A stretch of DNA of 64,000 nucleotides, taken from the NCBI GenBank assembly GCA_963699235.1, contig OY969424.1:887898-951897 (forward strand), written 5' to 3'. Under the pieces are notes generated by a model, which did not search any database, had not been told where the DNA came from, and was given only the letters and a program-made list of their open reading frames with translations. This document shows, one piece after another, positions 26,830 to 39,788 of this stretch. This stretch comes from an uncultured Chloroflexia bacterium. GTDB lineage: Bacteria > Chloroflexota > Limnocylindria > QHBO01. The stretch's first letter is position 1; every line of letters begins with the position of its first letter. The position numbers and the translations under genes are program-made.

Positions 26830-27700
26830 GCCTGGAGCGGGTCTACGTCGTCGGCGCGGGCTTGATGGGTCACGGCATCGCCCAGGTCAGCGCCGCCGCC
26901 GGCAAGCAGGTCACCCTCGCCGATCGGACCGAGGAGCTGGCCGACTGCCGGCCGCAAGCGGATCGCCGGCAACCTCGGCCAGGCAGGTGGACAAGGGCAA
27001 GCTGGGCCAGGCCGACTCCGAGGCCACCCTCGATCGGATCACCATCGCTACCGGCGCGGAAGCCGCCGCCGGCCACGACATCGTCGTTGAGGCCGTGTTC
27101 GAGGACGAGGCTGTCAAGCGCGAGACCTGGACGGCGGTGACCCACGCTGCCGACCCGGGCGCGATCTTCGCCTCGAACACCTCGTCGATCAGCATCACCG
27201 CCCTGGCCACCGCCACCGACCGGCCGGATCGGTTCATCGGTCTCCACTTCTTCAGCCCGGTCCCGGTCATGAAGCTGATCGAGATCATCCGCGGCCTGGA
27301 GACGTCGGACGAGACCGAGCAGGCGTGCCGCGACTTCGCCGCCGCCCTGGGAAAGACGGTCATCACCTCGAAGGACTACCCGGGCTTCCTCGTCAACCGG
27401 ATGCTCGGCCCGTTCATCAACGAGGCGGTGTTCGCCCTGGCCGAAGGCACCGGCACCGCCGAGGAGATCGACACCGGCGCCCGGCTGGGCCTGAACCACC
27501 CCATGGGCCCGCTCGAGCTGGCGGACTTCGTCGGGGTAGACGTCATGCTCAACGTCATGGACGTCCTGTACCGCGGGTTCGGCGACCCGAAGTTCCGTGC
27601 CTCGCCGCTCCTCCGCCAGATGGTGGCCGCCGGCCACCTGGGCCGAAAGACGGGTCGCGGGTTCTATTCGTACGACGAGCAGGGGAATAAGATCGGCTAG
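26826..27700 (+). CDS. 3-hydroxybutyryl/3-hydroxyacyl-CoA dehydrogenase (frameshifts near 26945-26985)
   Basis: GAGLMGHGIA, EAVFE, ASNTSSI, GLHFFSPVP, HPMGPL, LGRKTGRGFY. Confidence 0.9.
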
Positions 27701-27743
27701 CCCACCCATCGGCCCGCCCAGCCCTGGACATGAGGAGTTATCG

Positions 27744-29676
27744 ATGACCACCGCGGCACCCGCCCCCTCCGCGGCCGCCACCGACCGCATCTCGACATCG
27801 CCGGGCTCTCGCCGGATGTGGAACGAGGTCGAGACCCTCCTCATGCCGGAGTCCGAGAAGGCCCGGAACGTGGTGGAGCTGATCCATCGGTCGGTCGAGC
27901 GGATTCCGGACAAGGAAGCGCTCCGCTGGAAGTTGCCCAAGGACCAGGGCGCCGGCTGGGTGAGCCGGAGCTACGCCGAGTTCTGGGACTGGGTCACTCG
28001 GACCTCGCTGGGCCTCAAGGGCCTGGGCCTCAAGGACGGCGACGGGGTCTGCATCATGTCGCGGACCCGGCCCGAGTGGCTGGTGGCGGACATCGGCAGC
28101 TGGGCGCTGGGCGCGGTGTCGTGCCCCATCTATCCCCAGACCGAGGCCGGCCAGGCGGCCTTCATCCTCAACAACGTGGGCGCGGTGGTGCTATTCGTCG
28201 AGAACGCCCAGCTGGCGTCCAAGATCGAGTCCATCCGGGACCAGGTGCCGACCCTGCGCCACGTCATCACCTTCGACAAGGCGGGCAAGTTCCCGGCGGG
28301 CACGATGACCCTCGAGGACCTCGCCAGCCTGGACCTCGACGACGCGCAGCGAAAGACGTGGGAGGCCGGCTGGCGCGCGATCGACCGCGAGCACCTGGCC
28401 ACCGTAATCCACACCTCGGGAACGACGGCCAATCCCAAGGGGGCGATGATTCGCCACGGCAACCTGCTCTACAACTACGAAGCCGCGGTCCAGATCGTGG
28501 ACTTCTACGAGACCGATGTCTTCTTGTCCTGGCTGCCGCTGTCCCACATCTTCGAGCGGCTGACCGGCGAGATCATCCCGCTGGCCCACGGGTCAACCGT
28601 CGTCTACGCGGAGTCCCTCATCGAGCGACTGGCGGACAACATGGTCGAGGTCAGGCCGACGGTCATGGCGGCGGTGCCCCGCTTTTACGAGCGGGTCTAT
28701 GGCCGGGTGCTCGCCTCGGTCGAGGCCTCGCCGCCGCTCCGGCAGCGGATCTTCCACTGGGGGATCGGGGTCGGCCGGAAGCGGTACGAGAACCACGTCG
28801 CCGGCAAGGGCGACGGCATCGGCCTGAAGGTCCAGCACGCGATCGCGGACCGCCTCGTCTACCACAAGGTCAAGGCCCGGACCGGCGGGCAGGTCCGCTA
28901 CTTCGTCTCCGGCTCGGCGCCCCTCTCGCGGGAGGTGGGGGAGTTCTTCTACGCGCTGGGCATCCTCATCCTCGAGGGCTACGGGCTGTCCGAGACGAGC
29001 CCGCTGGTGTCCATCAACCGGCCCAACGGATTTCAAGTTCGGGACGGTCGGGCGACCCGCGCCCGCGACCGAGGTTCGGATCGACCCGGAGACCGGCGAG
29101 ATCCAGGTCCGCGGCCCGCAGATCATGCTCGGCTACCTGAACAACCCCGCCGAGACGGCCAAGGCCATCGATCCCGACGGCTGGTTCCACACCGGTGACA
29201 TCGGGGAGCTGGATCCCGTCGGCCGGATCACGATCACCGACCGGCTGAAGAACATCATCGTCCTGGCCAACGGCAAGAACGTGTCGCCCGGACCGATGGA
29301 GGCCGCGCTCTCAGCGTCGAAGTACATCGCCCAGGCGGTGATCCTGGGCGACCGACACCCCTACACCGGGGCCTTGATCGCGCCCAACTTCGACGAGCTC
29401 AAGCCGTGGGCCGAGGCCAACGGGCTGGGTGGCATGCCCCTTGAGAAGCTCGTCGAGGAGAAGGCCGTCCGCCAGCTCATCGAGGGCGACGTGCGCGACC
29501 TCCTGGACGACTTCGCCGTCTTCGAACGGCCGCGCCGGATCGCGCTCCTGCCCCGCGCATTGACCGAGGAGAACGGGGAGCTCACGCCGACGCTGAAGAC
29601 GAAAGTCCGGGTGGTCCAGGAGAACTGGCCGGCCCAGATCAACCGCCTCTTCGAGGACGACGGCGTCCCGTCCTAG
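27744..29676 (+). CDS. Long-chain fatty acyl-CoA ligase (frameshift near 29030)
   Basis: HTSGTTANPKG, EGYGLSET, GWFHTGDIG, DRLKNIIVLANGKNVSP. Confidence 0.9.
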
Positions 29677-29703: not shown

Positions 29704-31407
29704 TCAGTCCACGAAGCGGAACGAATCCAGGATTCGGCGGAAGATTGGTCCGCCGCCACCGGTGGGAGCCCACGCCATGATCAGGGGACGGCCTTCGCGG
29801 AACGCGACTACGTAATAGCGAACGCGGCCGCCGTACTGTCGACCCGGCCACTGCTCGACGACGAGGCGGTTAGCCATCTCCCCACCGAGAGCAATGGTCC
29901 GTGTCGAGACCTTCGTCGAGTTCGGTGCCCAGAACGTCGATTGCTCCGGGGCCACCAGGTCGGTCAGCTCCTCCAGCGATGGGATGCTGACCAACGCGCA
30001 CGGGGATCCTGTCGCAGCGCCGCAATTGAGGATCCTCCCTGCACCATCGCCAATCCGGAGCGTGAGCCGCCCGCCACGCCCAGCCACCGACAGGACGAGG
30101 GGGTCAGTGTCGGAGCGCAGCTCCCACGAGGCCGGAGCGTCAAACTCGATATCGGCCTCCTCCCACGAGATCGTCTGGAAGGTTGGCTGCGACGGCTCAG
30201 GCGGTGTGGCGGACGGCGTCTCCACTGCCCCTTCGTCGATGAACTGGAAGGTATCGAGGAGCATGTCGATGGTCGCGATTCGCGGGGCTGAGGGCTGAAA
30301 CGCGAAGCCGTTCCGGTACCGAATGAGATAGGGCCGTCCCTCGTGCAGCGCGAAGGCGTACTCATGACCCCGGATCCGGAATTGCCTCGCCTCTTCTCCG
30401 CCAAGGGAAACAGGTCGAACTCGGACCGAGGTCGGGCAGGGATTCAGGCACTCCGCGCCCGTATCAAAGACTGGGCCGGCGAAGAACTCCTCTTGCTGGA
30501 ATGGCTCGGCGACATCGTCGAGTGTTTTGATAGTGACGGCCTCACATCGCTCCCACCGTCGCTCTTGCGTTTGGCAGGCTCCTTCGAGGCGGCCGTCGGC
30601 ATCGCCAACCCGCACCGCGAGCTCGATAGCCTGCCCTGGTCCACTGATCCGCACGGCGCTCGCACCTTCCGCGAGGACCGACCATCCCGCCGGCAGGGTC
30701 ATCTGAAAGCCTGCCTCACGGAATGCCCGCACATCCGGGGTGGCGCCTGAGGGGTCGACGAACTGGAACGAGGCGAGGATCTCGTCCCAGAGGTGTGGTG
30801 GGGACCTACGTTCGGCCGAGGTGTGGAACCGGATGAAGTACGGGCGATCCTCGTGGATCGTCAGCACGTACAGTGCGCTCTCGGCGCCCTGAGCAGGGTA
30901 CTCGTAGCCATGGAAGCGGATGAACACCGCTTCTTCTCCGGCCATCGTCGACACACTCCTTTTCGCACCGGGGATGCACCAGCCGCAGCCAGCGGGCGGG
31001 CCTGTCGCGACCGCGTCACGGAATTCGTCGAGGTTCGCGATCCGGGCGTCGCGACATCGCTCCCATGGCCTGTCAGGGGCCTCGCAGGTGATCAGCTGGC
31101 CGTCGGGCTGACCGACCCGGATCGTCAGGCTGGTGCCGAATCCCCTCATCTCGACATTCGAGCCTTGCTCGTTCATGGTCCAGAAGCGCGGAATCCGTAT
31201 CCGGTAGCCAGCCTCGGCGAACACCAGCGTTTCGCCCACGAACTCATCCAGATTGCTCTGGGCCGCCGGGGTGGAGGGCTGCGGTGGGTCCGCGGCGCTC
31301 GCGGCGGAGTCCGCCTGAGGAACTAGGGAGAATCCACCAAGCAGCACCGTCCCGAGCACGACGACGACCGCAAGGTATCCGAGGCGCGGGTCCATTCGAC
31401 CTGTCAT
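29704..31407 (-). CDS. Exported protein with three tandem PsbP/DcrB-like Cys-loop repeats
   Basis: N-terminal hydrophobic signal; three units (G/D)(Y/F/I)xxxxPxxW...C-xn-C...GE-A...GRP...F(Q/R)F(V/I)D. Confidence 0.7.
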   Translation of the reverse strand: MTGRMDPRLGYLAVVVVLGTVLLGGFSLVPQADSAASAADPPQPSTPAAQSNLDEFVGETLVFAEAGYRIRIPRFWTMNEQGSNVEMRGFGTSLTIRVGQPDGQLITCEAPDRPWERCRDARIANLDEFRDAVATGPPAGCGWCIPGAKRSVSTMAGEEAVFIRFHGYEYPAQGAESALYVLTIHEDRPYFIRFHTSAERRSPPHLWDEILASFQFVDPSGATPDVRAFREAGFQMTLPAGWSVLAEGASAVRISGPGQAIELAVRVGDADGRLEGACQTQERRWERCEAVTIKTLDDVAEPFQQEEFFAGPVFDTGAECLNPCPTSVRVRPVSLGGEEARQFRIRGHEYAFALHEGRPYLIRYRNGFAFQPSAPRIATIDMLLDTFQFIDEGAVETPSATPPEPSQPTFQTISWEEADIEFDAPASWELRSDTDPLVLSVAGRGGRLTLRIGDGAGRILNCGAATGSPCALVSIPSLEELTDLVAPEQSTFWAPNSTKVSTRTIALGGEMANRLVVEQWPGRQYGGRVRYYVVAFREGRPLIMAWAPTGGGGPIFRRILDSFRFVD

Positions 31408-31416
31408 GTCGAGATG

Positions 31417-31441
31417 GATGCCGGAAGACGCTCTGCGGTTC
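31417..31441 (-). promoter_or_regulatory. Putative ECF promoter, probably leaderless
   Basis: GAACC-N15-GCATC, 9 nt before the ATG at 31407; same motif and spacing as the promoter of the sigma gene at 34726. Confidence 0.65.
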
Positions 31442-31627
31442 GAAAAGACGCTTCACACAGCCATGCGTGCTTCGCATCAGGTGCCAGAGGTCTTGAGATC
31501 TGTGCCGGAACCGTCCAGGAGGATCTTCAGCCCCCCAGCAGAACGACTGTATCCGGACCATCGTGAACAGACCGATGCGGGCGGCAGGCTGGGTCTCAGT
31601 CCACCGCCCGCTGGAGTACGGAGGCGA

Positions 31628-32584
31628 TCAGTGGCCGCCGTGGGTCCGGCTTCGGGTGGTGACGTAGATGTCCGTCATTCCTTCCGGGCCGGGTGCTCGT
31701 CCGAAGTACAGGGTCTTCCCATCGAGGGAGAACGATGCCCGCGTCTCGTTCGCGCTGGTGTTCAGCTCGGTCACGGCCATCGGCGCCGACCAGGGATCCG
31801 AAGTTCCGGAACGGGTCGCGACGTAGATGTCGAACCCGCCGGCTCCGCCGGTGCGGTCGGAGTCAAAGACGATCTCGAGACCGTCGGCCCGAACGTTCGG
31901 CCGCAGGTCGTTTGATGTCGTGTTCAGCGCGGCCACGGGGACGGCGGGTCCGAAGGATCCGTTCGACTGCATGGTGCTATCCACGATGTCCGGGCCGCTC
32001 GAGAAGTACAGGTGCAGCCGGCCACCGCCCAGGAACACCGAAGGGCCTGCTTCGCCGAGGGCGGTGTTGGGACCGCCATTCACCTGGCAGCCGAGGTTTT
32101 CCGGAGTCGTCCAGCCGCCGCCGAACAACCGCTGCCGGGCGACGTAGATGTCGCCGGCCCCACAGCCGCCCAGACGGGCACTGACGAAGAACAGGATCTT
32201 GCCGATAACGGGCGTGGGACAGAAGTCGTCCGCGGTGCTGTTGATCGCATCACCCAGGTTCACCGGGGCACCGAACGGTGCACTCGGGCTCGCCCGGTGG
32301 GCGACCCAGATGTCGAGGTCGGTCCGTGGATCGCCCACGTACCGTGGCCGGTTGGAGGCGAAGTAGAGGCTCTTGCCGTCGGGCGACTGGATCGGGCAGC
32401 CGTCCACCGACGGAGAGTTGATGTCGGCATGGTTGCCGGCAATGGTGTCCACCTTCTGGGGCGCGGCCCAGCTGGAGAACGACCCGCCGGCGACGGTGCC
32501 GACGAGCGTCGCCACCAGCACGAGGGCCGCCGTGGCGGCCGCCGCGAGGCGGGCATGTCGCCGATTCGTGACGCTGGGTCCCAT
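31628..32584 (-). CDS. Exported PD40/TolB-like beta-propeller protein
   Basis: Signal peptide; repeats SPDGKSLYFASNR, ADGLEIVFDSDRTGG, SLDGKTLYF, DIYVATR. Confidence 0.8.
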   Translation of the reverse strand: MGPSVTNRRHARLAAAATAALVLVATLVGTVAGGSFSSWAAPQKVDTIAGNHADINSPSVDGCPIQSPDGKSLYFASNRPRYVGDPRTDLDIWVAHRASPSAPFGAPVNLGDAINSTADDFCPTPVIGKILFFVSARLGGCGAGDIYVARQRLFGGGWTTPENLGCQVNGGPNTALGEAGPSVFLGGGRLHLYFSSGPDIVDSTMQSNGSFGPAVPVAALNTTSNDLRPNVRADGLEIVFDSDRTGGAGGFDIYVATRSGTSDPWSAPMAVTELNTSANETRASFSLDGKTLYFGRAPGPEGMTDIYVTTRSRTHGGH

Positions 32585-32648
32585 GGTGTGTTCCTCATCC
32601 AGTTGCGGTTTGCGGATGAGGCACCTGCGCAGGGCCTGTACTGGGATA

Positions 32649-32674
32649 GAGGCCGTGTAGACCCCGATCGGTTC
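32649..32674 (-). promoter_or_regulatory. Putative ECF promoter variant for the PD40 gene
   Basis: GAACC-N16-GCCTC upstream of 32584. Confidence 0.45.
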
Positions 32675-32711
32675 AGTAATCGGCGCCGTCGGCGGTTGTC
32701 CGCGGCACGGC

Positions 32712-34178
32712 TCAGTCGAGGAAGGTGAAGCTCTCCAGCATCTGGACGAGGTACTCGTCGTCGATCTCGCCGAAGGTGACGAGCCACCAGTCGAAGGCCA
32801 GCACGACGGGCTGGCCTTCGCGCACGGTGAAGACCTGGTAGAGCACGCCCGGGCAGCCTAGACAGTTACCTCCGGCCGACTCGGCGATTCCGATGTCCGC
32901 GTACGGGCCGGGAAGCAGCGGGTAGTCCGGCCAGTTCACACGGGCATCACCACCGGACAGCACGTAGTCTGCTGCCGAGTCTCCTTCGGGCATTCCGTCT
33001 CCGCCGACCTCCACGAAGTAGGTCGGCATGGCGACAAGCCCCAGATCCATGTCCCCCAGCGTTGGCGCGGTCAGCGGCTGGCAAACGATCTCTGCGGTCG
33101 TGGAGCCGTCGAGCGGCTCGGGGATGCAGTTGGCGAACACCGATCCGTCGGGTAAACCGACGCTGATCGCCAGACCCGGAGCCTGCTCCGACCCAAACCC
33201 GGTGCCCTGGCCGAATGCCTGCACGCCTGGGTACGGGTCGCCGTTCGGATCCGAAAGATCAGCGGCGCTCTCCTGCCAGAAGCGCGGCATGAGCATCTCG
33301 TATCCGTCGTCGGGGTTCGAGTACAGGATCAGCTCGGTGGGATCGACAAAGGGCGGTGGACTGCCTCCCGCTCCGGGGTCGAGGAACTGGAAGCTGTCTC
33401 GCATCGCTTCGACCCGAGCGAGATCGGCAGTCCCCATGGGCTCGGCCCAGTACAGGATGATCGGGCGGTAGTTGTGGAACGTCGACACGTAGGTGAGCTG
33501 AAGGTCGGTGATCACTGCCCGGTCCTGGCCTGCGGGCTCCCGGTCGAGGGTCGTTTCCGTGTATTCCACCGGGCAGGCGCCGTCACAGCGGTCGAGCCAA
33601 CCCTCCTGGGAGATCGGCCCGGTGTAGTCCGAAGGCACGACGGGCACCGAGTAGCCGTAATCGATCGTCAGGCAGGTGTTGTAGTCAGGGAGTGGCGGCG
33701 CGCAGATCGAGACTTCGCCGCCGTCGAAGATCGAGGTCCCGTAGCTGATCATGAGCTCGCCACTCGGACCGGAGAACAGCTTCGCATCGGGGAACCCGGA
33801 GTCGACCTCCAGCCAGTTGGCCGGAATCAGGAGCTGATATCCGGCCTCCTCGGAGATGTACGGGACGAGCGCGTCCGCGGCGGGCGACGGACTCTGGCTC
33901 GGGGTGGGCGTCGGCGTTTCGTCGCCGACGAGGACCGGGCCAAGCACCACACCTAGACCGATGGCCAGGACGAGGATCACCGCCGCCCACGCCACCGGCG
34001 ACTCGACCATCCATGACCACATGGCAGTGATGCGGCCGCTCTCCTGCGGCGTGGTGGCGACCTCGAGCATCGCCCGCTCGGCGATCCGATCCGGCCCGGT
34101 GTCCGGACCCTCGTGCATCCAGGTCCCCAAGAGGGCGTCGAGCTCGGCGTCGTTCATCGGTCGATCGCGTCCGGTCAT
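32712..34178 (-). CDS. Putative anti-sigma/sensor 1: cytoplasmic N-domain, one TM helix, two PsbP-like repeats
   Basis: LGTWMHEGPDTGPDRIAERAMLEVATTPQ, TM helix, PT linker, two repeats; ATGA-coupled to the sigma gene. Confidence 0.7.
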   Translation of the reverse strand: MTGRDRPMNDAELDALLGTWMHEGPDTGPDRIAERAMLEVATTPQESGRITAMWSWMVESPVAWAAVILVLAIGLGVVLGPVLVGDETPTPTPSQSPSPAADALVPYISEEAGYQLLIPANWLEVDSGFPDAKLFSGPSGELMISYGTSIFDGGEVSICAPPLPDYNTCLTIDYGYSVPVVPSDYTGPISQEGWLDRCDGACPVEYTETTLDREPAGQDRAVITDLQLTYVSTFHNYRPIILYWAEPMGTADLARVEAMRDSFQFLDPGAGGSPPPFVDPTELILYSNPDDGYEMLMPRFWQESAADLSDPNGDPYPGVQAFGQGTGFGSEQAPGLAISVGLPDGSVFANCIPEPLDGSTTAEIVCQPLTAPTLGDMDLGLVAMPTYFVEVGGDGMPEGDSAADYVLSGGDARVNWPDYPLLPGPYADIGIAESAGGNCLGCPGVLYQVFTVREGQPVVLAFDWWLVTFGEIDDEYLVQMLESFTFLD

Positions 34179-34726
34179 GCCGTCCACCTTCCGGCGCCGG
34201 GTCGGGCGTCAGCCTCGAGTGCCCCCCGGAGCGCCGTCCGACCGGCCGCCGATCGCGACTTCACCGTCCCGAGCGGGATGCCGAGCATCTCCGCAATCTG
34301 GGGGTGACCGAGGTCGAGGTAGTACTGGAGGACGAGGACCGCCCGCTGCTCGGCCGGTAGGCGGGCGAAGGCCCGCTCCAGCATGTCGCGGTCGGCGACG
34401 CTGACCTGGGAGTCGCCCGCGGCGGCATCGGTGTCGAGGAGGTGGAGCCCGTCGGGGTTGCGCTTCCCCCGACGGGTCTCGGCGTAGCAGGTGTTGACCA
34501 GGATCCGATACGCCCAGCCTTCGAACTTCTCCGGATCCGACAGCTTGGGCAGCTTGCGCCAGATCTGGACGAGGGCCTGCTGGGTCGCGTCCTCGGCCCG
34601 GTGGTAGTCGCGGAGGATGCGCTGGGCGACGGTGAACAGGCGCGGGCTAATGGCAAAGGCGAGTTCGGAGAACGCCCCCTGGTCTCCTCGCTGGGCCAGC
34701 TCCACGAGCCTCCGCTCCACAGACAT
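34175..34726 (-). CDS. ECF RNA polymerase sigma factor 1
   Basis: AQRGDQGAF, AEDATQQA, FEGWAYRIL, QRAVLVLQYY, GIPLGTVKSR. Confidence 0.92.
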   Translation of the reverse strand: MSVERRLVELAQRGDQGAFSELAFAISPRLFTVAQRILRDYHRAEDATQQALVQIWRKLPKLSDPEKFEGWAYRILVNTCYAETRRGKRNPDGLHLLDTDAAAGDSQVSVADRDMLERAFARLPAEQRAVLVLQYYLDLGHPQIAEMLGIPLGTVKSRSAAGRTALRGALEADARPGAGRWTA

Positions 34727-34734
34727 ACCTCGGT

Positions 34735-34793
34735 GCGGCCCGATTGGGCGGGCCCGCTCAGCGCGTTTGATGCCCGAGCCCGCGGTTCGGTTC
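34735..34793 (-). promoter_or_regulatory. Putative autoregulatory ECF promoter plus 5'-UTR hairpin (sigma 1)
   Basis: GAACC(34793-34789)-N15-GCATC(34773-34769), then TGAGCGGGCCCG-cccaat-CGGGCCGC ahead of the GAGG RBS. Confidence 0.65.
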
Positions 34794-34824
34794 GATTATC
34801 GGATCTGGCCGAACCGCATCGGGC

Positions 34825-36165
34825 TCAATCGATGAAGCGGATGCTCGAGCTGATCTCGTCCCAAAGTCCCGGCCCGGAGAAGACGGGGCCCCACTGGAGG
34901 ATTACGGCTCGCTCATTTCGGATGAATACGAGGTATCGCTCCGTACCGGGGCCGGTCATGGGTCCTGGGGGGCTTATGGTGACCCGGGCCGCGGCGACAC
35001 CGTCGAGGATGACCCGTTGATCCCTCACGGTTGGACTCATGGTCGGCTCGAGCCCCCAACGGACGCGGTACTCCCCTCGAGCGACGCCGATGAGATCGTC
35101 CATGGAGCGAGCCTCGACCAGTTGGCAGGGCGCCAAGACGAGACACGTCGAGATGTGACCACTCTGATCGCCGGCTCGAACCTGGACGCTTCCACTCGTG
35201 CCACGAATGGTGACCACCGCCGGGTCAGCACCGGCGTCAACCACCCAGTCCGACGGAATGTCAACAGCGACACCGGCGTTGGCGAGTTCGACCGTCTTCC
35301 ACGTCGTTAGGTCGGAGTCGTCGGGGCTCGGGATGGGGCTTTCGTGGAGATCCAGGAACCGGAAGCCCTGGATGAGCGCCCGGACCCAGCCGATGTCATT
35401 CGACTGACGCCCCACGCCGTAGGCGTACTTGTCGAACGACAGGACGATGGGGCGGCCGTTGTGGATCGCGAACAGATGGTGGAACTGTGGCCCGGCTTCG
35501 ATCAGTCCGCCGGCAAAGGTCACGTACTCGAGCCGCGCCGGCTCGCCGTCCAGAGTCACATCGACATCGTTGGTCGTGATACTCCGGCCTCTGGTACGGT
35601 ATTTGCGATGGCGGCGTCCAGCTCGTCGATCGTGGTCGCGACGATCGGACGGCATAGGCCAGGAGCGCAGTCGTAGACGGTCCCGTCGGCGGCGCCGATG
35701 CTCACTGTCAGGGCGCCGAAAGAAGAACCCCGCTTCGCCGGGGTGGGCGTCGCCAAATCTCATCGTCCCGGGCGGATCGGAGAAGAACTCGGCGGGGGTC
35801 CAGCGTGCGGGCAGCGTCAGCTCGTACCCATCCTCCTCGTTCGTGAAGACGACCATTCTTGACGGCGGGTCGGAGGCGTCCGGGGTCGGCGTGTCGGTGT
35901 ACCCAGGCGTCGGCGTCGCCTCCGTGCCAGGCGGCGGCAGCACCTGTCCAAGGCCGGCGCCCAGTGCCACGACCGCCGCTACGGCAGCCAGCGTCAGACC
36001 AACAGGGACAAGCGGCGATCCGCCGGTGAAGCGCAGCAGGCGACCCCGCCAGCGGCGCTGCGGGGTCCGTGCCGCGGTTCGCAGGGCAGACTCGACCATG
36101 AGGTCGGGTGCGACGACCGGCCCGTCGTCGAGCCAGTGGTCGAGGACGCGGGTGATGTCCGTCAT
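34825..36165 (-). CDS. Putative anti-sigma/sensor 2 with two PsbP-like repeats (compensating frameshifts near 35715 and 35590; true start may be 36193)
   Basis: LDHWLDDGPVVAPDLMVESALRTAARTPQ, TM helix, two repeats; the missing segment LTVSIGAADGTVYDCAPGLC lies in the 35556..35756 frame. Confidence 0.7.
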   Translation of the reverse strand: MTDITRVLDHWLDDGPVVAPDLMVESALRTAARTPQRRWRGRLLRFTGGSPLVPVGLTLAAVAAVVALGAGLGQVLPPPGTEATPTPGYTDTPTPDASDPPSRMVVFTNEEDGYELTLPARWTPAEFFSDPPGTMRFGDAHPGEAGFFFRRPDSEHRRRRRDRLRLRSWPMPSDRRDHDRRAGRRHRKYRTRGRSITTNDVDVTLDGEPARLEYVTFAGGLIEAGPQFHHLFAIHNGRPIVLSFDKYAYGVGRQSNDIGWVRALIQGFRFLDLHESPIPSPDDSDLTTWKTVELANAGVAVDIPSDWVVDAGADPAVVTIRGTSGSVQVRAGDQSGHISTCLVLAPCQLVEARSMDDLIGVARGEYRVRWGLEPTMSPTVRDQRVILDGVAAARVTISPPGPMTGPGTERYLVFIRNERAVILQWGPVFSGPGLWDEISSSIRFID

Positions 36166-36189
36166 CGGTCAGTGGGCGGCCGAAGGTGC

Positions 36190-36733
36190 TCATGCTGGTT
36201 GCGCTCCTGAGGCTGGGCGGGCATCGGCTTCCAGGGCGGCCCGGAGGGCCTGGCGTCCGGCATGGCTCCGCGACTTGACGGTGCCGAGCGGGACTTGCAG
36301 GAGCTCGGCGATCTCCGGGAGGCCCAGGTCCAGGTAGTGCTGGAGGACGAGGATCGCCCGCTGGTCGGCCGGGACGCGTCGGAAGGCCCGGTCGAGCTCG
36401 TCCCGGTCGGCGACGGACAGGGCGTCGTCCGGCGTTACGCCGTCCGGGATGACCGTCGGCCGGATGGTCGTCGCGCCGACCCTGGCGCGCCTCCGCATAG
36501 CAGGCGTGAACCAGGATCCGATACGCCCAGGCCTCGAACCGCGACTGGTCGCGAAGGCTGGGAAGGTCGCGCCAGATGGCGACGATCGCGTGCTGCGCGG
36601 CGTCGTCGGCTCGGTCGTGGTCGCGGAGGATGCGGTAGGCGATCGCGTAGAGCCGCGATCCCAGTGCGTGGGCCAACTCGGCGAAAGCCTCCTGGTCGCC
36701 TCGCTGTGCCTGTTCCACGATCCGCGGGTCCAC
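36190..36733 (-). CDS. ECF RNA polymerase sigma factor 2 (frameshift near 36490)
   Basis: AQRGDQEAF, ADDAAQHA, FEAWAYRIL in one frame; DRDELDRAF, QRAILVLQHY, GTVKSR in the other. Confidence 0.88.
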
Positions 36734-36747
36734 TCGTCGACCTCGAT

Positions 36748-36806
36748 GCGGCCCTCTTGGGCAGGTCCGCTCAATGGGAGGAGTGAGGGAGTGGTGGTCG
36801 CGGTTC
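36748..36806 (-). promoter_or_regulatory. Putative ECF promoter plus 5'-UTR hairpin (sigma 2)
   Basis: GAACC(36806-36802)-N16-CACTC(36785-36781), then TGAGCGGACCT-gcccaag-AGGGCCGC. Confidence 0.55.
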
Positions 36807-36837
36807 GATTATGCGCTCGGTGCCGCGTCTGATCGCC

Positions 36838-38271
36838 TCAATCGAGGAACCGGAAGGCGTCGATCAGCCGAAACGCCGATTGATGGTCACCCGCGCCATT
36901 CCTCAATGCCCAATGCTCGAAGGCGATCACTAGGGGACGCGCGTTGTGCACGGCGAAAAGGTGCTGGAATTGCGGCGTGGCGGTCCAGCCGTTGGGCGAG
37001 GTAATGCCTACATAGAGGGCAGGTTCGCCGTCCAGGGTTACGTCCTGACGGACCTCGGACATCCCGGGGACCCCCCCTAGGCCTTCCGTCAACGAGTCAA
37101 TGGCCTCGTCCATTTCCTCGATCGTGGTGCCCACTTCGTACGTGTGGAGGCACCCGCCGGCCTGACACAGGCGGATTCGGCCTCGGGAATCACCAACCGA
37201 AATCGTCATGAGAGCGGTGTACGGACGCTCGTAGCCCTCACCCCATCCGGCGATGGGTAGTGCTGGATCGACAGGTCCGAAGAAGGCGCCTTCTCCAAAC
37301 AGGTCGCTTCGCGGCTCCCAGGAGGAGGGCACACTGACCTCGTACCCACCTTCGTCCACCGCGTAGACGACAAGTCCTGACTCCGGAGTTTCCGGTGACG
37401 CCGTCGAATCAAGGAAGCGGAAGCTGCGCAAGATCGCGGTGTACGTCGACAAGACCTCCGGCTGACCGCCGACCCAGGACTCGATCTCGAAGGTCATCAC
37501 AACCGGCCGCCCGTCGTGAATGGCGTAGATGGAGCCGATGGCCCAACCGCCCCCCCCGAAGCCCAATCCGCCCGGATGGTCAGTAGCGGGATAGCGGAGA
37601 CGGGCAGGTTCTCCGTCAAGCTCGACATCAGCGATGTGCTCGACCAGCTCCCGACCCATCAGGTTGAAGCGATTCGGCCACGTGGCCTTGATCGCGTCCT
37701 CGAGCTCCTCGAGCGTATCCGCGGTGACCTGACGGCATACGACGGTGTAACAGAGGTCCACCTCGCCAGCAGGGCTGCCGACACTGATGCTCAACCCTCG
37801 CGGCAGCCCTCCGTCCAATACGTCCGGTCGCAGCCAGACTGTCCCTAGGTGGTTCGTCCATTCCAGGGGTAGGTCATAGATGCGATCCAGTCCCACCTCA
37901 TCCCAGGTGGCGGGCATAGTCAGCTCGTACCCGTCGACCGTGTTCTGGTAGAGCTGCCCACTCGGCTCTAATGACGGCGCGGGGACGTTTGAATCCTCCG
38001 GGCCAGGCGAGGCCGACGGGTCGGTCCCGACCAGCCCGGGCCCCAGGCCCAGCCCGAGGCCGATGAGCAGCGCCGCCACGGTGGCTGCCACCAACCCGAG
38101 GCGGAGGGTGGTCACGTCGATGGCGAACAGGCTCGGCCGAACTTGGCGGGTCGCTTGCAGATCGGTCAGGGCGGAGGCGACGACCCGATCAGCCGAAAGC
38201 CGAGGCCCGTCGCGGAACCAGCCATCAAGGAGGCCGTCCAGGTCAATCGGGCGCTTCGCCATCTCGCTCAT
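36838..38271 (-). CDS. Putative anti-sigma/sensor 3 with two PsbP-like repeats
   Basis: LDGWFRDGPRLSADRVVASALTDLQATRQ, TM helix, two repeats ending FRFLD; ATGA-coupled to the sigma gene. Confidence 0.7.
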   Translation of the reverse strand: MSEMAKRPIDLDGLLDGWFRDGPRLSADRVVASALTDLQATRQVRPSLFAIDVTTLRLGLVAATVAALLIGLGLGLGPGLVGTDPSASPGPEDSNVPAPSLEPSGQLYQNTVDGYELTMPATWDEVGLDRIYDLPLEWTNHLGTVWLRPDVLDGGLPRGLSISVGSPAGEVDLCYTVVCRQVTADTLEELEDAIKATWPNRFNLMGRELVEHIADVELDGEPARLRYPATDHPGGLGFGGGGWAIGSIYAIHDGRPVVMTFEIESWVGGQPEVLSTYTAILRSFRFLDSTASPETPESGLVVYAVDEGGYEVSVPSSWEPRSDLFGEGAFFGPVDPALPIAGWGEGYERPYTALMTISVGDSRGRIRLCQAGGCLHTYEVGTTIEEMDEAIDSLTEGLGGVPGMSEVRQDVTLDGEPALYVGITSPNGWTATPQFQHLFAVHNARPLVIAFEHWALRNGAGDHQSAFRLIDAFRFLD

Positions 38272-38816
38272 GCCGACTGCACCTCACGGGCGAGCGCGCG
38301 CTCATCCGCTTCCATGGCGGCCCGGAGCTGGCGCTTCGCCGCATGGCTGCGGGACCGCGCTGTCCCGACCGGGATGTCGAGCCGCTCGGCACACTGGTCC
38401 AGGGTCAGGCCCAAGTAGTGCTGAAGGACGAGGATGGCCCGATGCTCGACCGAGAGGCGGAGGAAGGCCTGCTCGAGCTGGTCCCGGTCGGCGAGGTCGG
38501 TTCCGGCTTGGTGAACGGGTCCATCGTCGGGCAGCAGGCTCCGGGTCGGGATCGCCCGGCGCTCACGGCGCAGCTCAGACCGGCACTCGTTGAGCAGGAT
38601 GCGGTAGGCCCAGCCCTCGAAACGGTCCGGGTCGCGGAGACGGGGGAGCTGCTGCCACATGGCAACGATCGCCTGCTGGGTCGCGTCCTCGGCCAGGTCG
38701 ACGTCGCGCACGATCCTGTGGGCGAGGTTCAGCCATCGGTCGCCCAGCGCGATCGAGATGGCGGAGAAGGCGTCTTCATCGCCATGCTGGGCTCGGATCA
38801 CCAGGTCACGCTCCAC
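38268..38816 (-). CDS. ECF RNA polymerase sigma factor 3
   Basis: AQHGDEDAF, AEDATQQA, FEGWAYRIL, HRAILVLQHY, IPVGTARSR; GTG start after GAGG. Confidence 0.92.
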   Translation of the reverse strand: MERDLVIRAQHGDEDAFSAISIALGDRWLNLAHRIVRDVDLAEDATQQAIVAMWQQLPRLRDPDRFEGWAYRILLNECRSELRRERRAIPTRSLLPDDGPVHQAGTDLADRDQLEQAFLRLSVEHRAILVLQHYLGLTLDQCAERLDIPVGTARSRSHAAKRQLRAAMEADERALAREVQSA

Positions 38817-38830
38817 GCGCTTGCCTCGCT

Positions 38831-38888
38831 GCGGACCTCTCAGGCAGGTCCGCTCACTGTAGAGATGCCGGGCAACGGCTTCCGTATC
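38831..38888 (-). promoter_or_regulatory. Putative ECF promoter plus 5'-UTR hairpin (sigma 3)
   Basis: GATAC(38888-38884)-N15-GCATC(38868-38864), then a perfect hairpin GCGGACCT-gcctgag-AGGTCCGC. Confidence 0.55.
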
Positions 38889-38913
38889 GATCTTCCTGCC
38901 TCGGGTCGCGGAT

Positions 38914-38945
38914 TTGACAAACATACCGATATCGGTATATATAAC
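38914..38945 (+). promoter_or_regulatory. Sigma70 promoter with palindromic operator for arsR
   Basis: TTGACA at 38914; perfect palindrome ATACCGATATCGGTAT at 38923-38938; TATATA/TATAAC. Confidence 0.7.
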
Positions 38946-38953
38946 CGTCCGAT

Positions 38954-39310
38954 ATGGCCCGAGCAGCTACGACGACCGACGCGTTCAACGCCGTGGCCGA
39001 GCCCCGTCGACGTCAGATCCTCGATGCGCTGGCGGAGGGCGAGCGCCCGGTGAACGATCTGGTGCTGTTGCTCGGCCTTGGCCAGCCCCAGGTGTCCAAG
39101 CACCTTCGGGTGCTGCGGGAAGTGGACCTGGTGGCGGTCCGAGACGAAGGACGGCAGCGGATGTATCGGCTGAATGGCCAGTCGCTCAAGCCCATCCACG
39201 ACTGGGTAAAGGCCTACGAGCAGTCGTGGAACGAGCGGTTCGAGGTGCTGGACGAGGTCCTGGATGAGCTGAAGACAGAGGAGCACGACAATGGTGGCCA
39301 TGACGACTAG
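38954..39310 (+). CDS. ArsR/SmtB family transcriptional regulator
   Basis: FNAVAEPRRRQIL, QPQVSKHLRVLRE, GRQRMY. Confidence 0.9.
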   Translation: MARAATTTDAFNAVAEPRRRQILDALAEGERPVNDLVLLLGLGQPQVSKHLRVLREVDLVAVRDEGRQRMYRLNGQSLKPIHDWVKAYEQSWNERFEVLDEVLDELKTEEHDNGGHDD

Positions 39311-39788
39311 CCAGTCGGCGGTAGTGACCCTCCCGACCGACACCCAGATCCTGGTTACCCGCGAGTTCGCCGCGCCGGCGCACCTGGTCTACCGGGCGTG
39401 GACCGAGCCGGAGCTGATCAAGCGCTGGTGGAACGCCAGGCGCGGCGAGGTGACCGTCGCCGATGTGGACCTCCGGGTCGGCGGGAAGTGGCGGTGGGTG
39501 ATGCTCGCCCACGGGACCACCGAGGTGGCCTTCCACGGGGAGTACCGCGAGATCGTCCCCGGCGAGCGCCTGGTCTACACCGAGATGTTCGAGATGCCGG
39601 GCGGGACCGATGACGACGCGCCCCTCAACACGGTCACCCTCACCGAGCAGGACGGTCGAACACTCATGACCTCCCTGACAGAGACGTACAGCGCTGAGGT
39701 CCGGGACATGATCATCGCGACCGGCATGGAAGCCGGGATGCAGGACGCGTATGACCTGCTCGAGGAGGTCGCGATCTCGCTGGCCTGA
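39300..39788 (+). CDS. SRPBCC/AHSA1-START domain protein
   Basis: [48 protein letters not shown]. Confidence 0.88.

Follow-up and report, generated by a model that had tools for sequence, protein, structure and literature searches.

How should one read a locus in which three related sigma factors stand in a row, each followed by a membrane protein of its own? The question is raised by a 64-kb window, the whole stretch of DNA that we analyzed and to which all window coordinates refer, from the 2.09 Mb genome of an uncultured soil bacterium of the phylum Chloroflexota (G000; the other genomes compared with it are G003, G008-G011, G014-G016, G106, G117 and G130). Eight consecutive genes on the minus strand occupy window positions 29704-38924, namely three pairs, each with one sigma factor of the extracytoplasmic function (ECF) type and a putative sensor, then a gene for a PD40 protein and one for an exported protein of three repeats. 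We consider it fairly probable that the region comprises three paralogous, translationally coupled ECF sigma/anti-sigma operons, followed by two probable target genes. In our analysis, the order of the genes and their overlaps, the homology of the domains, the fold, the size of the family and the synteny were established, and the binding of sigma is predicted. Translations and domain matches confirmed the layout given by the first-pass annotation of the window, i.e. three paralogous ECF sigma factors, each with a single-pass, two-repeat partner, upstream of the PD40 and three-repeat genes.

The assignment of the sigma factors was based on family models. Both sigma1 and sigma3 match the NCBIfam model of the ECF superfamily, TIGR02937 (77.9 and 74.4 bits, respectively, with a cut-off of 42.9), as well as the Pfam models PF04542 (Sigma70_r2) and PF08281 (Sigma70_r4_2), and sigma1 also matches Sigma70_ECF. 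For sigma2 as assembled, Pfam matches region 4 only, and region 2 sits in another frame. Judged by sequence, sigma1 and sigma3 are ECF (group 4) members of the sigma-70 family, containing only regions 2 and 4, and sigma2 presents both halves in two frames. The best NCBIfam subfamily for all three is TIGR02983 (SigE family), the cut-off of which (141.55 bits) is reached by neither sigma1 (121.9), sigma3 (102.2) nor sigma2 as assembled (68.5), and the nearest solved sigma factor is SigW (E 2.6e-20).

Each sensor starts with a module of ~45 residues, termed the N-module here, with the consensus DLDRxLxxWLxEGxxxxPDRxxExAxxxxAxTPQR. As read from the translations, a single hydrophobic span follows, with basic residues ahead of it. 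The conserved cytoplasmic motif that had been noticed in the three sensors is real, as its Gln is invariant both in an alignment of 21 N-modules (Q38) and in 100 database relatives (Q39). The sensor genes start at 38271 (sensor3), 36193 (sensor2) and 34178 (sensor1), each with an ATGA overlap with the sigma stop. In pair 2 the overlap requires a 1-base indel near 36158, and the G009 orthologue has it intact; the junctions thus bear out the earlier account, in which pairs 1 and 3 overlap and pair 2 does so only if an indel is allowed. Indeed, the 4-base overlap is present at every junction read, in the paralogous pairs of this genome as well as in close relatives. To look beyond these, we found related loci with a sigma alignment and analyzed the best 80, in which 90 of 93 sigma C-termini have an N-module ORF (open reading frame) within 36 nt 3'; two of the three exceptions sit at the end of a locus.

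Such strict pairing raises the question of whether the partners are inhibitors of their sigma factors or, alternatively, co-transcribed envelope cargo of the sigma regulon, with sigma control lying elsewhere. Family searches leave room for the cargo alternative, as no curated anti-sigma model is matched by the N-module above its cut-off and no solved anti-sigma chain is matched by its sequence. The three sensors matched no Pfam or NCBIfam anti-sigma model (zf-HC2, RskA, RseA and similar) at E<=0.1, none of 100 relatives matched the class I anti-sigma Pfam models at E<=0.001, and a Pfam scan of these 100 full-length relatives yielded no family matched by more than two of them. A search with the N-module profile among PDB chains gave a best E of 0.72, to a chain that is not an anti-sigma factor, and neither the translations nor the 21-sequence alignment contain a His/Cys zinc motif. 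The module is also shorter than the classical four-helix anti-sigma domain: the full-length sensor model (pLDDT 59.5) places two short helices before the span (residues 11-21 and 29-40 of sensor 3), which suggests this smaller size. However, the NCBIfam 'anti-sigma factor' model NF052375 matched the N-module region in 8 of the 100 relatives at E<=0.001 (best E 1.8e-6), and NF038083 (CU044_5270 family) matched 4 of the 100 at the same threshold. These matches are weak and do not amount to membership, with 12-20 bits in the relatives against a cut-off of 100 bits, and the window sensors have no match to either model at E<=0.1.

The complex model argues against the cargo alternative. When sigma1 was modelled with the first 50 residues of sensor1, an ipSAE of 0.86 was obtained in three of three runs, compared with 0.01 for the best of three controls; in the calibration of this score, 58 of 80 solved complexes attained the mark, as did 2 of 110 mismatched pairs. 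Contacts agreed between runs by at least 93%, and the pLDDT of the partner was at least 82. On the side of sigma, the modelled contacts involve residues 14-61 in region 2 and 107-171 in region 4, on that of the partner residues 6-41, and they pair the invariant Gln38 of the partner with the invariant Trp56 of sigma. The N-module is thus predicted to lie between regions 2 and 4, and the interaction between sigma and N-domain that the first-pass annotation had named as a refutation test came out positive. Conservation is, furthermore, concentrated in the short cytoplasmic N-terminus, with ectodomains freely exchanged, and the pairing of sigma and N-module described above is strict. Considering the model together with synteny, the sensors probably are anti-sigma factors, and we regard the cargo alternative as highly improbable.

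The outer part of the sensors had not been recognized as that of a characterized ECF group, and this needs correction, as its fold is recognizable. It is built of a repeat of ~170 residues, with two copies in each sensor and three in the exported protein. Twelve repeats were aligned: sensors 1 and 3 of the window contributed two each and the exported protein three, which makes seven, and orthologues supplied the other five. The alignment contains seven invariant columns (P18, W21, G63, G67, C72, C77 and F184), so that every aligned repeat presents the Cys pair; identity to the first repeat of the alignment is 20-36%. A model of a single repeat (pLDDT 78.9, pTM 0.78) was compared with the PDB by Foldseek, with PsbP as the best match (E 1.1e-6, TM 0.51/0.60) and Mog1p, M. 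tuberculosis Apa, MTC28, LpqN and DcrB as further ones; the matches at E<=0.001 number 24 PDB chains. On the basis of this modelled fold, the repeat is assigned to the PsbP/Mog1 fold superfamily of alpha/beta sandwiches. It does not belong to the PsbP family of Pfam, where scores of 16.7 and 23.0 bits fall below the cut-off of 23.5 and only the first ~25 positions are matched. Neither Pfam nor NCBIfam has a family that covers the sensors, and no solved chain was matched by their sequence. As the repeat profile aligns with the single ectodomain that is common in the family (hhalign probability 97.3%, E 2.1e-11, 144 columns), the window sensors are a tandem-duplicated form of the standard sensor. 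A word-based search, which found 6 relatives in 5.8 billion proteins, had made sensor 3 appear to be a rare protein, which the N-module profile search and hhalign ruled out. The tree of the 12 repeats has a single supported split (97/98), in which the distal repeat of sensor 2, as found in its orthologues, falls together with those of the exported protein, and the order of duplication cannot, therefore, be read from it. The packing of the two ectodomains in the full-length sensor model was dropped, the confidence of that model being too low.

A promoter-like motif, (T/C)GAACC-N16/17-C(A/C)TC, lies 5' of the sigma1, PD40 and three-repeat genes, and variants of it lie 5' of sigma2 and sigma3, in agreement with the earlier statement that both downstream genes have promoters related to those of the pairs. 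Orthologous sigma1, three-repeat and PD40 genes among G008, G009, G014 and G016 keep such sites, in four relatives for sigma1, in three for the three-repeat gene and in one (G014) for PD40. In the 64-kb window, the pattern GAACCG-N15-16-CMTC has three matches, all on the minus strand and just 5' of these same three genes. A genome-wide count of the strict pattern (11, compared with ~1.8 expected from base composition) was left unused, as the null is too crude. Upstream of the three-repeat gene, the spacing between the -10 part and the ATG is the same in G009, and similar sites lie 5' of the orthologues in G008 and G016; since only 7 nt separate the end of the -10 part from the ATG in both G000 and G009, the transcript is likely to be leaderless. 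The PD40 protein is well supported as such (PF07676, 72.7 bits against a cut-off of 20.9, in three stretches), although it is not TolB itself (TIGR02800, 24.6 bits against 343). Kinship between it and the propeller ectodomain of a paralogous partner at 680 kb of the genome was considered and rejected, as the pairwise match was not significant (E 0.16).

To follow the array between species, we compared the slot that it occupies, a tally that also took in the unpublished genome G015. G010 and G011 have a single pair there, G009 and G014 have two, and G000, G008 and G016 have three. Between species, the sigma factors are 78-88% identical and the sensors 52-68%, with 52% for sensor3 compared with 85% for sigma3, 56% for sensor1 compared with 82-88% for sigma1, and 68% for sensor2 compared with 78-82% for sigma2. 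Within the array, the sigma paralogues are 50-62% identical to sigma1 and the N-modules 33-35% identical to that of sensor1, so that, with the repeats at 20-36%, the claim of conserved sigma factors and diverged ectodomains holds. The sensor1 orthologue in G009, G014 and G003 (545-547 aa) keeps the N-module at 51-57% identity and has an unrelated ectodomain of ~450 residues with Asp-box-like repeats. This swapped ectodomain (L012:3692-5326 in G009 and L011:7253-8896 in G014) contains a repeated S-x-D-G-x-x-W and has no Pfam match at E<=0.001. Both copy number and ectodomains vary among species of one genus, as one would expect of the duplicated and diversified set that had been proposed. Judged by these sequence comparisons, the slot between the ArsR/thiolase block and the acyl-CoA synthetase is one that gains and loses pairs and exchanges ectodomains between species.

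This variation bears on what the sensors respond to. It could be that the pairs are true switches that all answer one general envelope stress, with paralogues differing in timing or targets and the divergence of ectodomains reflecting weak constraint. The three sensors have their fold and their invariant residues in common, the Cys pair among them, none of their residues is known to bind a ligand, and the five units have similar promoters, which would allow cross-talk. Sensors nonetheless diverge much faster than sigma factors between species, and whole ectodomains are replaced on a retained N-module. Although indirect, this evidence is more easily reconciled with changing specificities than with a single fixed cue, for which reason we find the single-stress explanation doubtful. 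The exported three-repeat protein might be a sigma-induced soluble copy of the ectodomain, which would bind either the sensor or the ligand recognized by it and thereby close a feedback loop, in the role of a decoy or co-receptor; the slot would then be a surface-recognition repertoire, the modules of which are exchanged by recombination. The grouping of the distal repeat of sensor 2 with the exported repeats and the swap of the whole ectodomain of sensor 1 between species fit such a role, which we put forward as a long shot.

Pair 2 has to be considered separately. The first-pass annotation accounted for it by a single indel, and the one near 36158 stands, but there are four frame breaks in all, near 36440-36480 (in the sigma2 linker), 36158, 35730 and 35590 (in sensor2). 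With the intact G009 orthologue as query, tblastn recovers sigma2 in two frames; both pair 2 orthologues are intact in G009, where sensor2 has 453 aa and the ATGA overlap. One could argue that the genes of pair 2 are pseudogenes in decay, in which case only two pairs would work and the array would be shrinking instead of being a maintained set of three receptors. Four breaks in ~2 kb, compared with none in the ~8 kb of rpoB and rpoC, are in line with decay, and a genome-wide codon-usage scan gave about one frameshift candidate per 19 kb, far below the density in pair 2. However, that scan found at least 109 frameshift-like junctions genome-wide, clustered, and it undercounts them, because it missed the breaks of pair 2. 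The adjacent acyl-CoA synthetase gene (27597-29676) is also split, near 29030. In the few-contig sister assemblies G008 and G016, there are many breaks at other positions, in the same genes as well as in the thiolase, synthetase and glutamate dehydrogenase genes, so that housekeeping genes are affected too, and glutamate dehydrogenase is broken in G014 too; the assembly of G009, in 310 contigs, has no breaks in the compared genes. The conserved core of sensor2, with its Cys pair, continues in the other frame, and contigs of ~91% identity, which cover the break sites patchily, have one base fewer at 36158 and at 36450 or 36452. We thus consider decay of this pair unlikely, and we think it quite likely that the breaks are assembly indels. 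Apart from pair 2, the scan placed eight of its junctions, which are frame switches on the same strand with no nearby stop, in the window (~41, 398, 3218, 3425, 4160, 5168, 9515 and 29039), and the frame switches of the genome as a whole point to assembly indel errors, or to many broken genes.

Taking the pairs as sigma factors with their anti-sigma partners, a mechanism can be proposed. The partner would be a single-pass membrane protein, the first ~45 residues of which are cytoplasmic and probably form two short helices with a conserved Trp and the invariant (T)PQ. This N-module may clamp sigma between regions 2 and 4 and so block its access to RNA polymerase, and the outer part, two PsbP/Mog1-like domains each with a Cys pair, may sense a cell-envelope or extracellular cue, possibly a separate ligand for each sensor. 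A signal would inactivate the partner, most simply via regulated proteolysis; a homologue of the M50 site-2 protease is present in G000 (178 bits), so that release by this route is possible. The freed sigma would then read a promoter of the (T/C)GAACC-N16-17-CATC type ahead of its own operon and, presumably, those of the neighboring three-repeat PsbP-like and PD40 genes. As the exported three-repeat protein shares the PsbP-like module, the sensors are built from the same module as one exported product.

Several points weigh against this interpretation and should be considered when referring to the results above. The support for binding is the model's own confidence and not a measurement, and the calibration of the complex score holds only roughly, because our own alignments were used. 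Two helices in the N-module are a soft result, because the full-length model from which they were read is poor. As the promoter pattern was taken from the very sequences in which it was counted, its support lies in placement and in conservation in orthologues; the count of GAACCG-N15-16-CMTC is not above chance (3 compared with 1.43 expected, with at least 3 in 17 of 100 shuffles), the sigma3 site deviates from the others in its -35 part, and no family-wide consensus could be derived, as 47 of 91 upstream regions lack (T/C/A)GAAC in the searched stretch and an alignment on this word gave no clear -10 part. Pair 2 is broken as assembled while rpoB and rpoC are intact, which would fit real decay. 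Finally, the inference of the first-pass annotation that each sensor binds a different ligand and releases its own sigma should be taken as a mere possibility.

The coordinates of all features are collected in Table 1. For sigma3, we preferred the start at GTG 38816, because ATG 38924 falls within a probable palindromic operator; this GTG aligns with the starts of the paralogues and has GAGG 7 nt 5' of it, and the longer ORF is probably not translated. The palindrome, ATACCGATATCGGTAT, is a perfect one of 16 bases at 38923-38938, between sigma3 and the divergent ArsR-type gene, and is probably the ArsR operator; it is conserved 5' of the lone sigma pair in G010 and G011. The ArsR-type gene (38954-39310, plus strand; PF01022, 48.7 bits) is followed by an AHSA1/SRPBCC gene (39291-39788, plus strand; PF08327, 89.8 bits). 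These two and a thiolase gene flank the array on one side, with the acyl-CoA synthetase on the other. The G+C content of the array (window 30001-38000) is 0.65-0.675, below the 0.70-0.73 of the flanks. The leaders of the three sigma genes contain hairpins of -14.6 to -16.6 kcal/mol just 5' of the ribosome-binding site, which are also found in the G009 and G014 orthologues. In the PD40 leader (~32585-32646, minus strand), the 3' arm of an 8-bp inverted repeat, CCTCATCC...GGATGAGG, lies over the ribosome-binding site and could gate translation.

Table 1 Features of the array in window coordinates, with the evidence on which each was based.
Feature	Position	Strand	Evidence
ECF sigma factor 3	38268-38816	minus	Pfam Sigma70_r2 and r4_2, TIGR02937; GTG start, longer ORF from ATG 38924
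Sensor 3, consisting of the N-module, a single hydrophobic span and a pair of PsbP/Mog1-like repeats (at residues ~103-288 and ~297-477)	36838-38271	minus	Translation, ATGA overlap, repeat alignment, model and fold search
ECF sigma factor 2; its linker of regions 2 and 4 contains a single frame break	36190-36733	minus	Three-frame reading, tblastn with G009 orthologue
Sensor 2; its frame is broken near 36158, 35730 and 35590	34825-36193	minus	Intact G009 orthologue; core reads on in other frame
ECF sigma factor 1	34175-34726 (ATG), or from GTG 34720 as in orthologues	minus	Pfam r2, r4_2 and Sigma70_ECF; TIGR02937; start context
Sensor 1, consisting of the N-module, a single hydrophobic span and a pair of PsbP/Mog1-like repeats	32712-34178	minus	Translation, ATGA overlap, N-module alignment, complex model
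PD40 (TolB-like) beta-propeller protein, exported	31628-32584	minus	PF07676; N-terminal signal-like hydrophobic segment in translation
Exported protein with three PsbP/Mog1-like repeats, without N-module	29704-31407	minus	Translation, repeat alignment, repeat tree
Sigma3 promoter-like site, TCGATAC-N16-CATCTC	38862-38890	minus	Read by eye
Sigma2 promoter-like site, TCGAACC-N16-CACTCC	36780-36808	minus	-35 block AATCGAACCG conserved in G009 and G014 orthologues
Sigma1 promoter-like site, TCGAACC-N16-CATCAA	34767-34795	minus	Orthologous sites in four relatives
PD40 promoter-like site, CTGAACC-N17-CCTCTA	32647-32676	minus	PD40 gene of G014, placed elsewhere, has TGAAC-N18-CATC
Three-repeat gene promoter-like site	31415-31443	minus	Ends 7 nt before ATG
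Sigma3 leader hairpin	38831-38855	minus	Pattern match and RNA fold
Equivalent leader hairpins	36748-36772 (sigma2), 34735-34759 (sigma1)	minus	Pattern match and RNA fold

How far does the family extend beyond the window? The N-module had not been recognized as that of a characterized ECF group, and it is indeed unnamed, but it is far from rare: at E<=1e-3, the profile search yielded 4784 cluster representatives, and at E<=1e-10 it yielded 1402, with the match lying at the protein's N-terminus in every case. The 30 nearest clusters of the Atlas are all 'hypothetical proteins', most commonly from Chloroflexota, and 71 of the best 80 related loci are titled Chloroflexota, many of them Candidatus Limnocylindria. 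Limnocylindria are abundant uncultured Chloroflexota of soil and freshwater with small genomes. The N-module was found in 59 of the 121 genomes sampled from this class, including the unpublished G106 and G130 (f1 35/40, f3 20/35, f2 3/39, f4 0/5 and f5 0/1), and in 26 of 301 genomes sampled from the phylum, where the five outside the class are weak matches (E 1.2e-6 to 4.9e-4). Among the sampled genomes, the module is essentially confined to one class, labelled Limnocylindria. Tandem arrays occur in other genomes of the class as well, e.g. in G117, with eight listed matches at 327470-352788 on one contig.

G000 itself contains 11 sigma paralogues, each with an N-module partner next to it (12 N-module matches, two of them fragments of one broken gene), of which three are in the window, six in a second array and two single. 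The second array lies ~84-100 kb upstream of the window (G000:C1:786000-805999, L013); two of its members are frame-broken, and its ectodomains are mostly single-domain, with one AMIN-like. In the genome as a whole, the partners mostly contain a single ectodomain of ~190 residues, with one AMIN-like (PF24837, 91 bits) and one beta-propeller; the double-repeat ectodomain is that of the three window sensors. With 28 matches to PF08281 (ECF-type region 4) above the cut-off, the density of ECF sigma factors is high for a genome of 2.09 Mb.

When comparing these pairs with known systems, the canonical pairs of an ECF sigma factor and a single-pass anti-sigma factor, RpoE-RseA, SigW-RsiW, SigK-RskA and SigL-RslA, serve as the first reference. 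A second one is provided by the class II anti-sigma domains, CnrY (with CnrH) and NepR, where a very short helical inhibitor touches both sigma regions. With the canonical pairs, the window shares a co-transcribed partner with one helix, an extracytoplasmic sensor and an N-terminus predicted to lie between regions 2 and 4 (for the scheme, see the accessible part of PMC7826278), as well as a promoter-like site before the pair's own operon and an M50 protease in the genome. It differs from them in that the N-module has only ~45 residues, without a His/Cys zinc motif and without a match to a curated model or a solved chain. The short N-module, the predicted contacts on both regions and the two helices of the soft full-length model (pLDDT 59.5) may be likened to class II, although no PDB chain is similar in sequence to the N-module profile.

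According to the accessible part of an ECF survey, most putative anti-sigma factors are specific to their group, have one transmembrane helix and lack a Pfam match to the studied ones, and the clade of ECF38, ECF39, ECF51 and ECF222 has a common type of anti-sigma factor; its main text does not mention Chloroflexi (PMC7826278). The actinobacterial SigE family is close in that TIGR02983 is the best subfamily for the window sigma factors and the N-modules of relatives weakly match NF052375 and NF038083; all scores are, however, below the cut-offs (102-122 bits against 141.55 for sigma1 and sigma3, 12-20 against 100 for the partners), and the host belongs to the Chloroflexota. The PsbP/Mog1-like envelope proteins (cyanobacterial and plant PsbP, Mog1p, Apa, MTC28, LpqN and Salmonella DcrB) share the fold (E 1.1e-6 to 7e-3, TM ~0.45-0.6) and an exported or cell-envelope location with the window domain, which is, nonetheless, only 8-15% identical to them, tandem-duplicated and fused to an anti-sigma module, with a Cys pair specific to the family.

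The closest analogy in design is offered by SigI/RsgI of Clostridium thermocellum, where, as far as the accessible parts of the sources describe it, nine pairs each sense their own substrate and release involves RseP (PMC12203970, PMC4711584, PMC6852018). As there, several paralogous pairs occur in one genome, each anti-sigma factor carries its own extracellular sensing module, and the extracellular modules are of the same kind as exported proteins under regulation. This should be regarded as a likeness of design only: the window sigma factors are ECF and not sigma-I, their partners have a different N-domain, the pairs stand in tandem, and the ligands of SigI/RsgI are, in those same accounts, polysaccharides. 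In line with this, no sigma-I or RsgI family is found among the Pfam and NCBIfam matches of the window sigma factors and sensors. Our search of the literature on Limnocylindria sigma factors, on PsbP/Mog1-linked anti-sigma factors and on ECF and anti-sigma factors of Chloroflexi found no account of the family; in the accessible part of one paper on Limnocylindria, sigma factors are simply counted.

The scheme is thus that of the canonical ECF switch, and our understanding of how such switches work is unchanged by the finding. What is new is the undescribed short partner module, the duplicated PsbP/Mog1-like sensor and the fast-changing array. Naming the N-module, as a probable short anti-sigma module, and the PsbP/Mog1-like ectodomain would annotate thousands of 'hypothetical proteins', and, as a possible toolbox, the family could supply studies of orthogonality with many natural sigma/anti-sigma pairs. 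For the bacterium itself, as 11 of the 28 ECF region 4 matches of its genome belong to this one family, these pairs are probably a main route for reading its surroundings.

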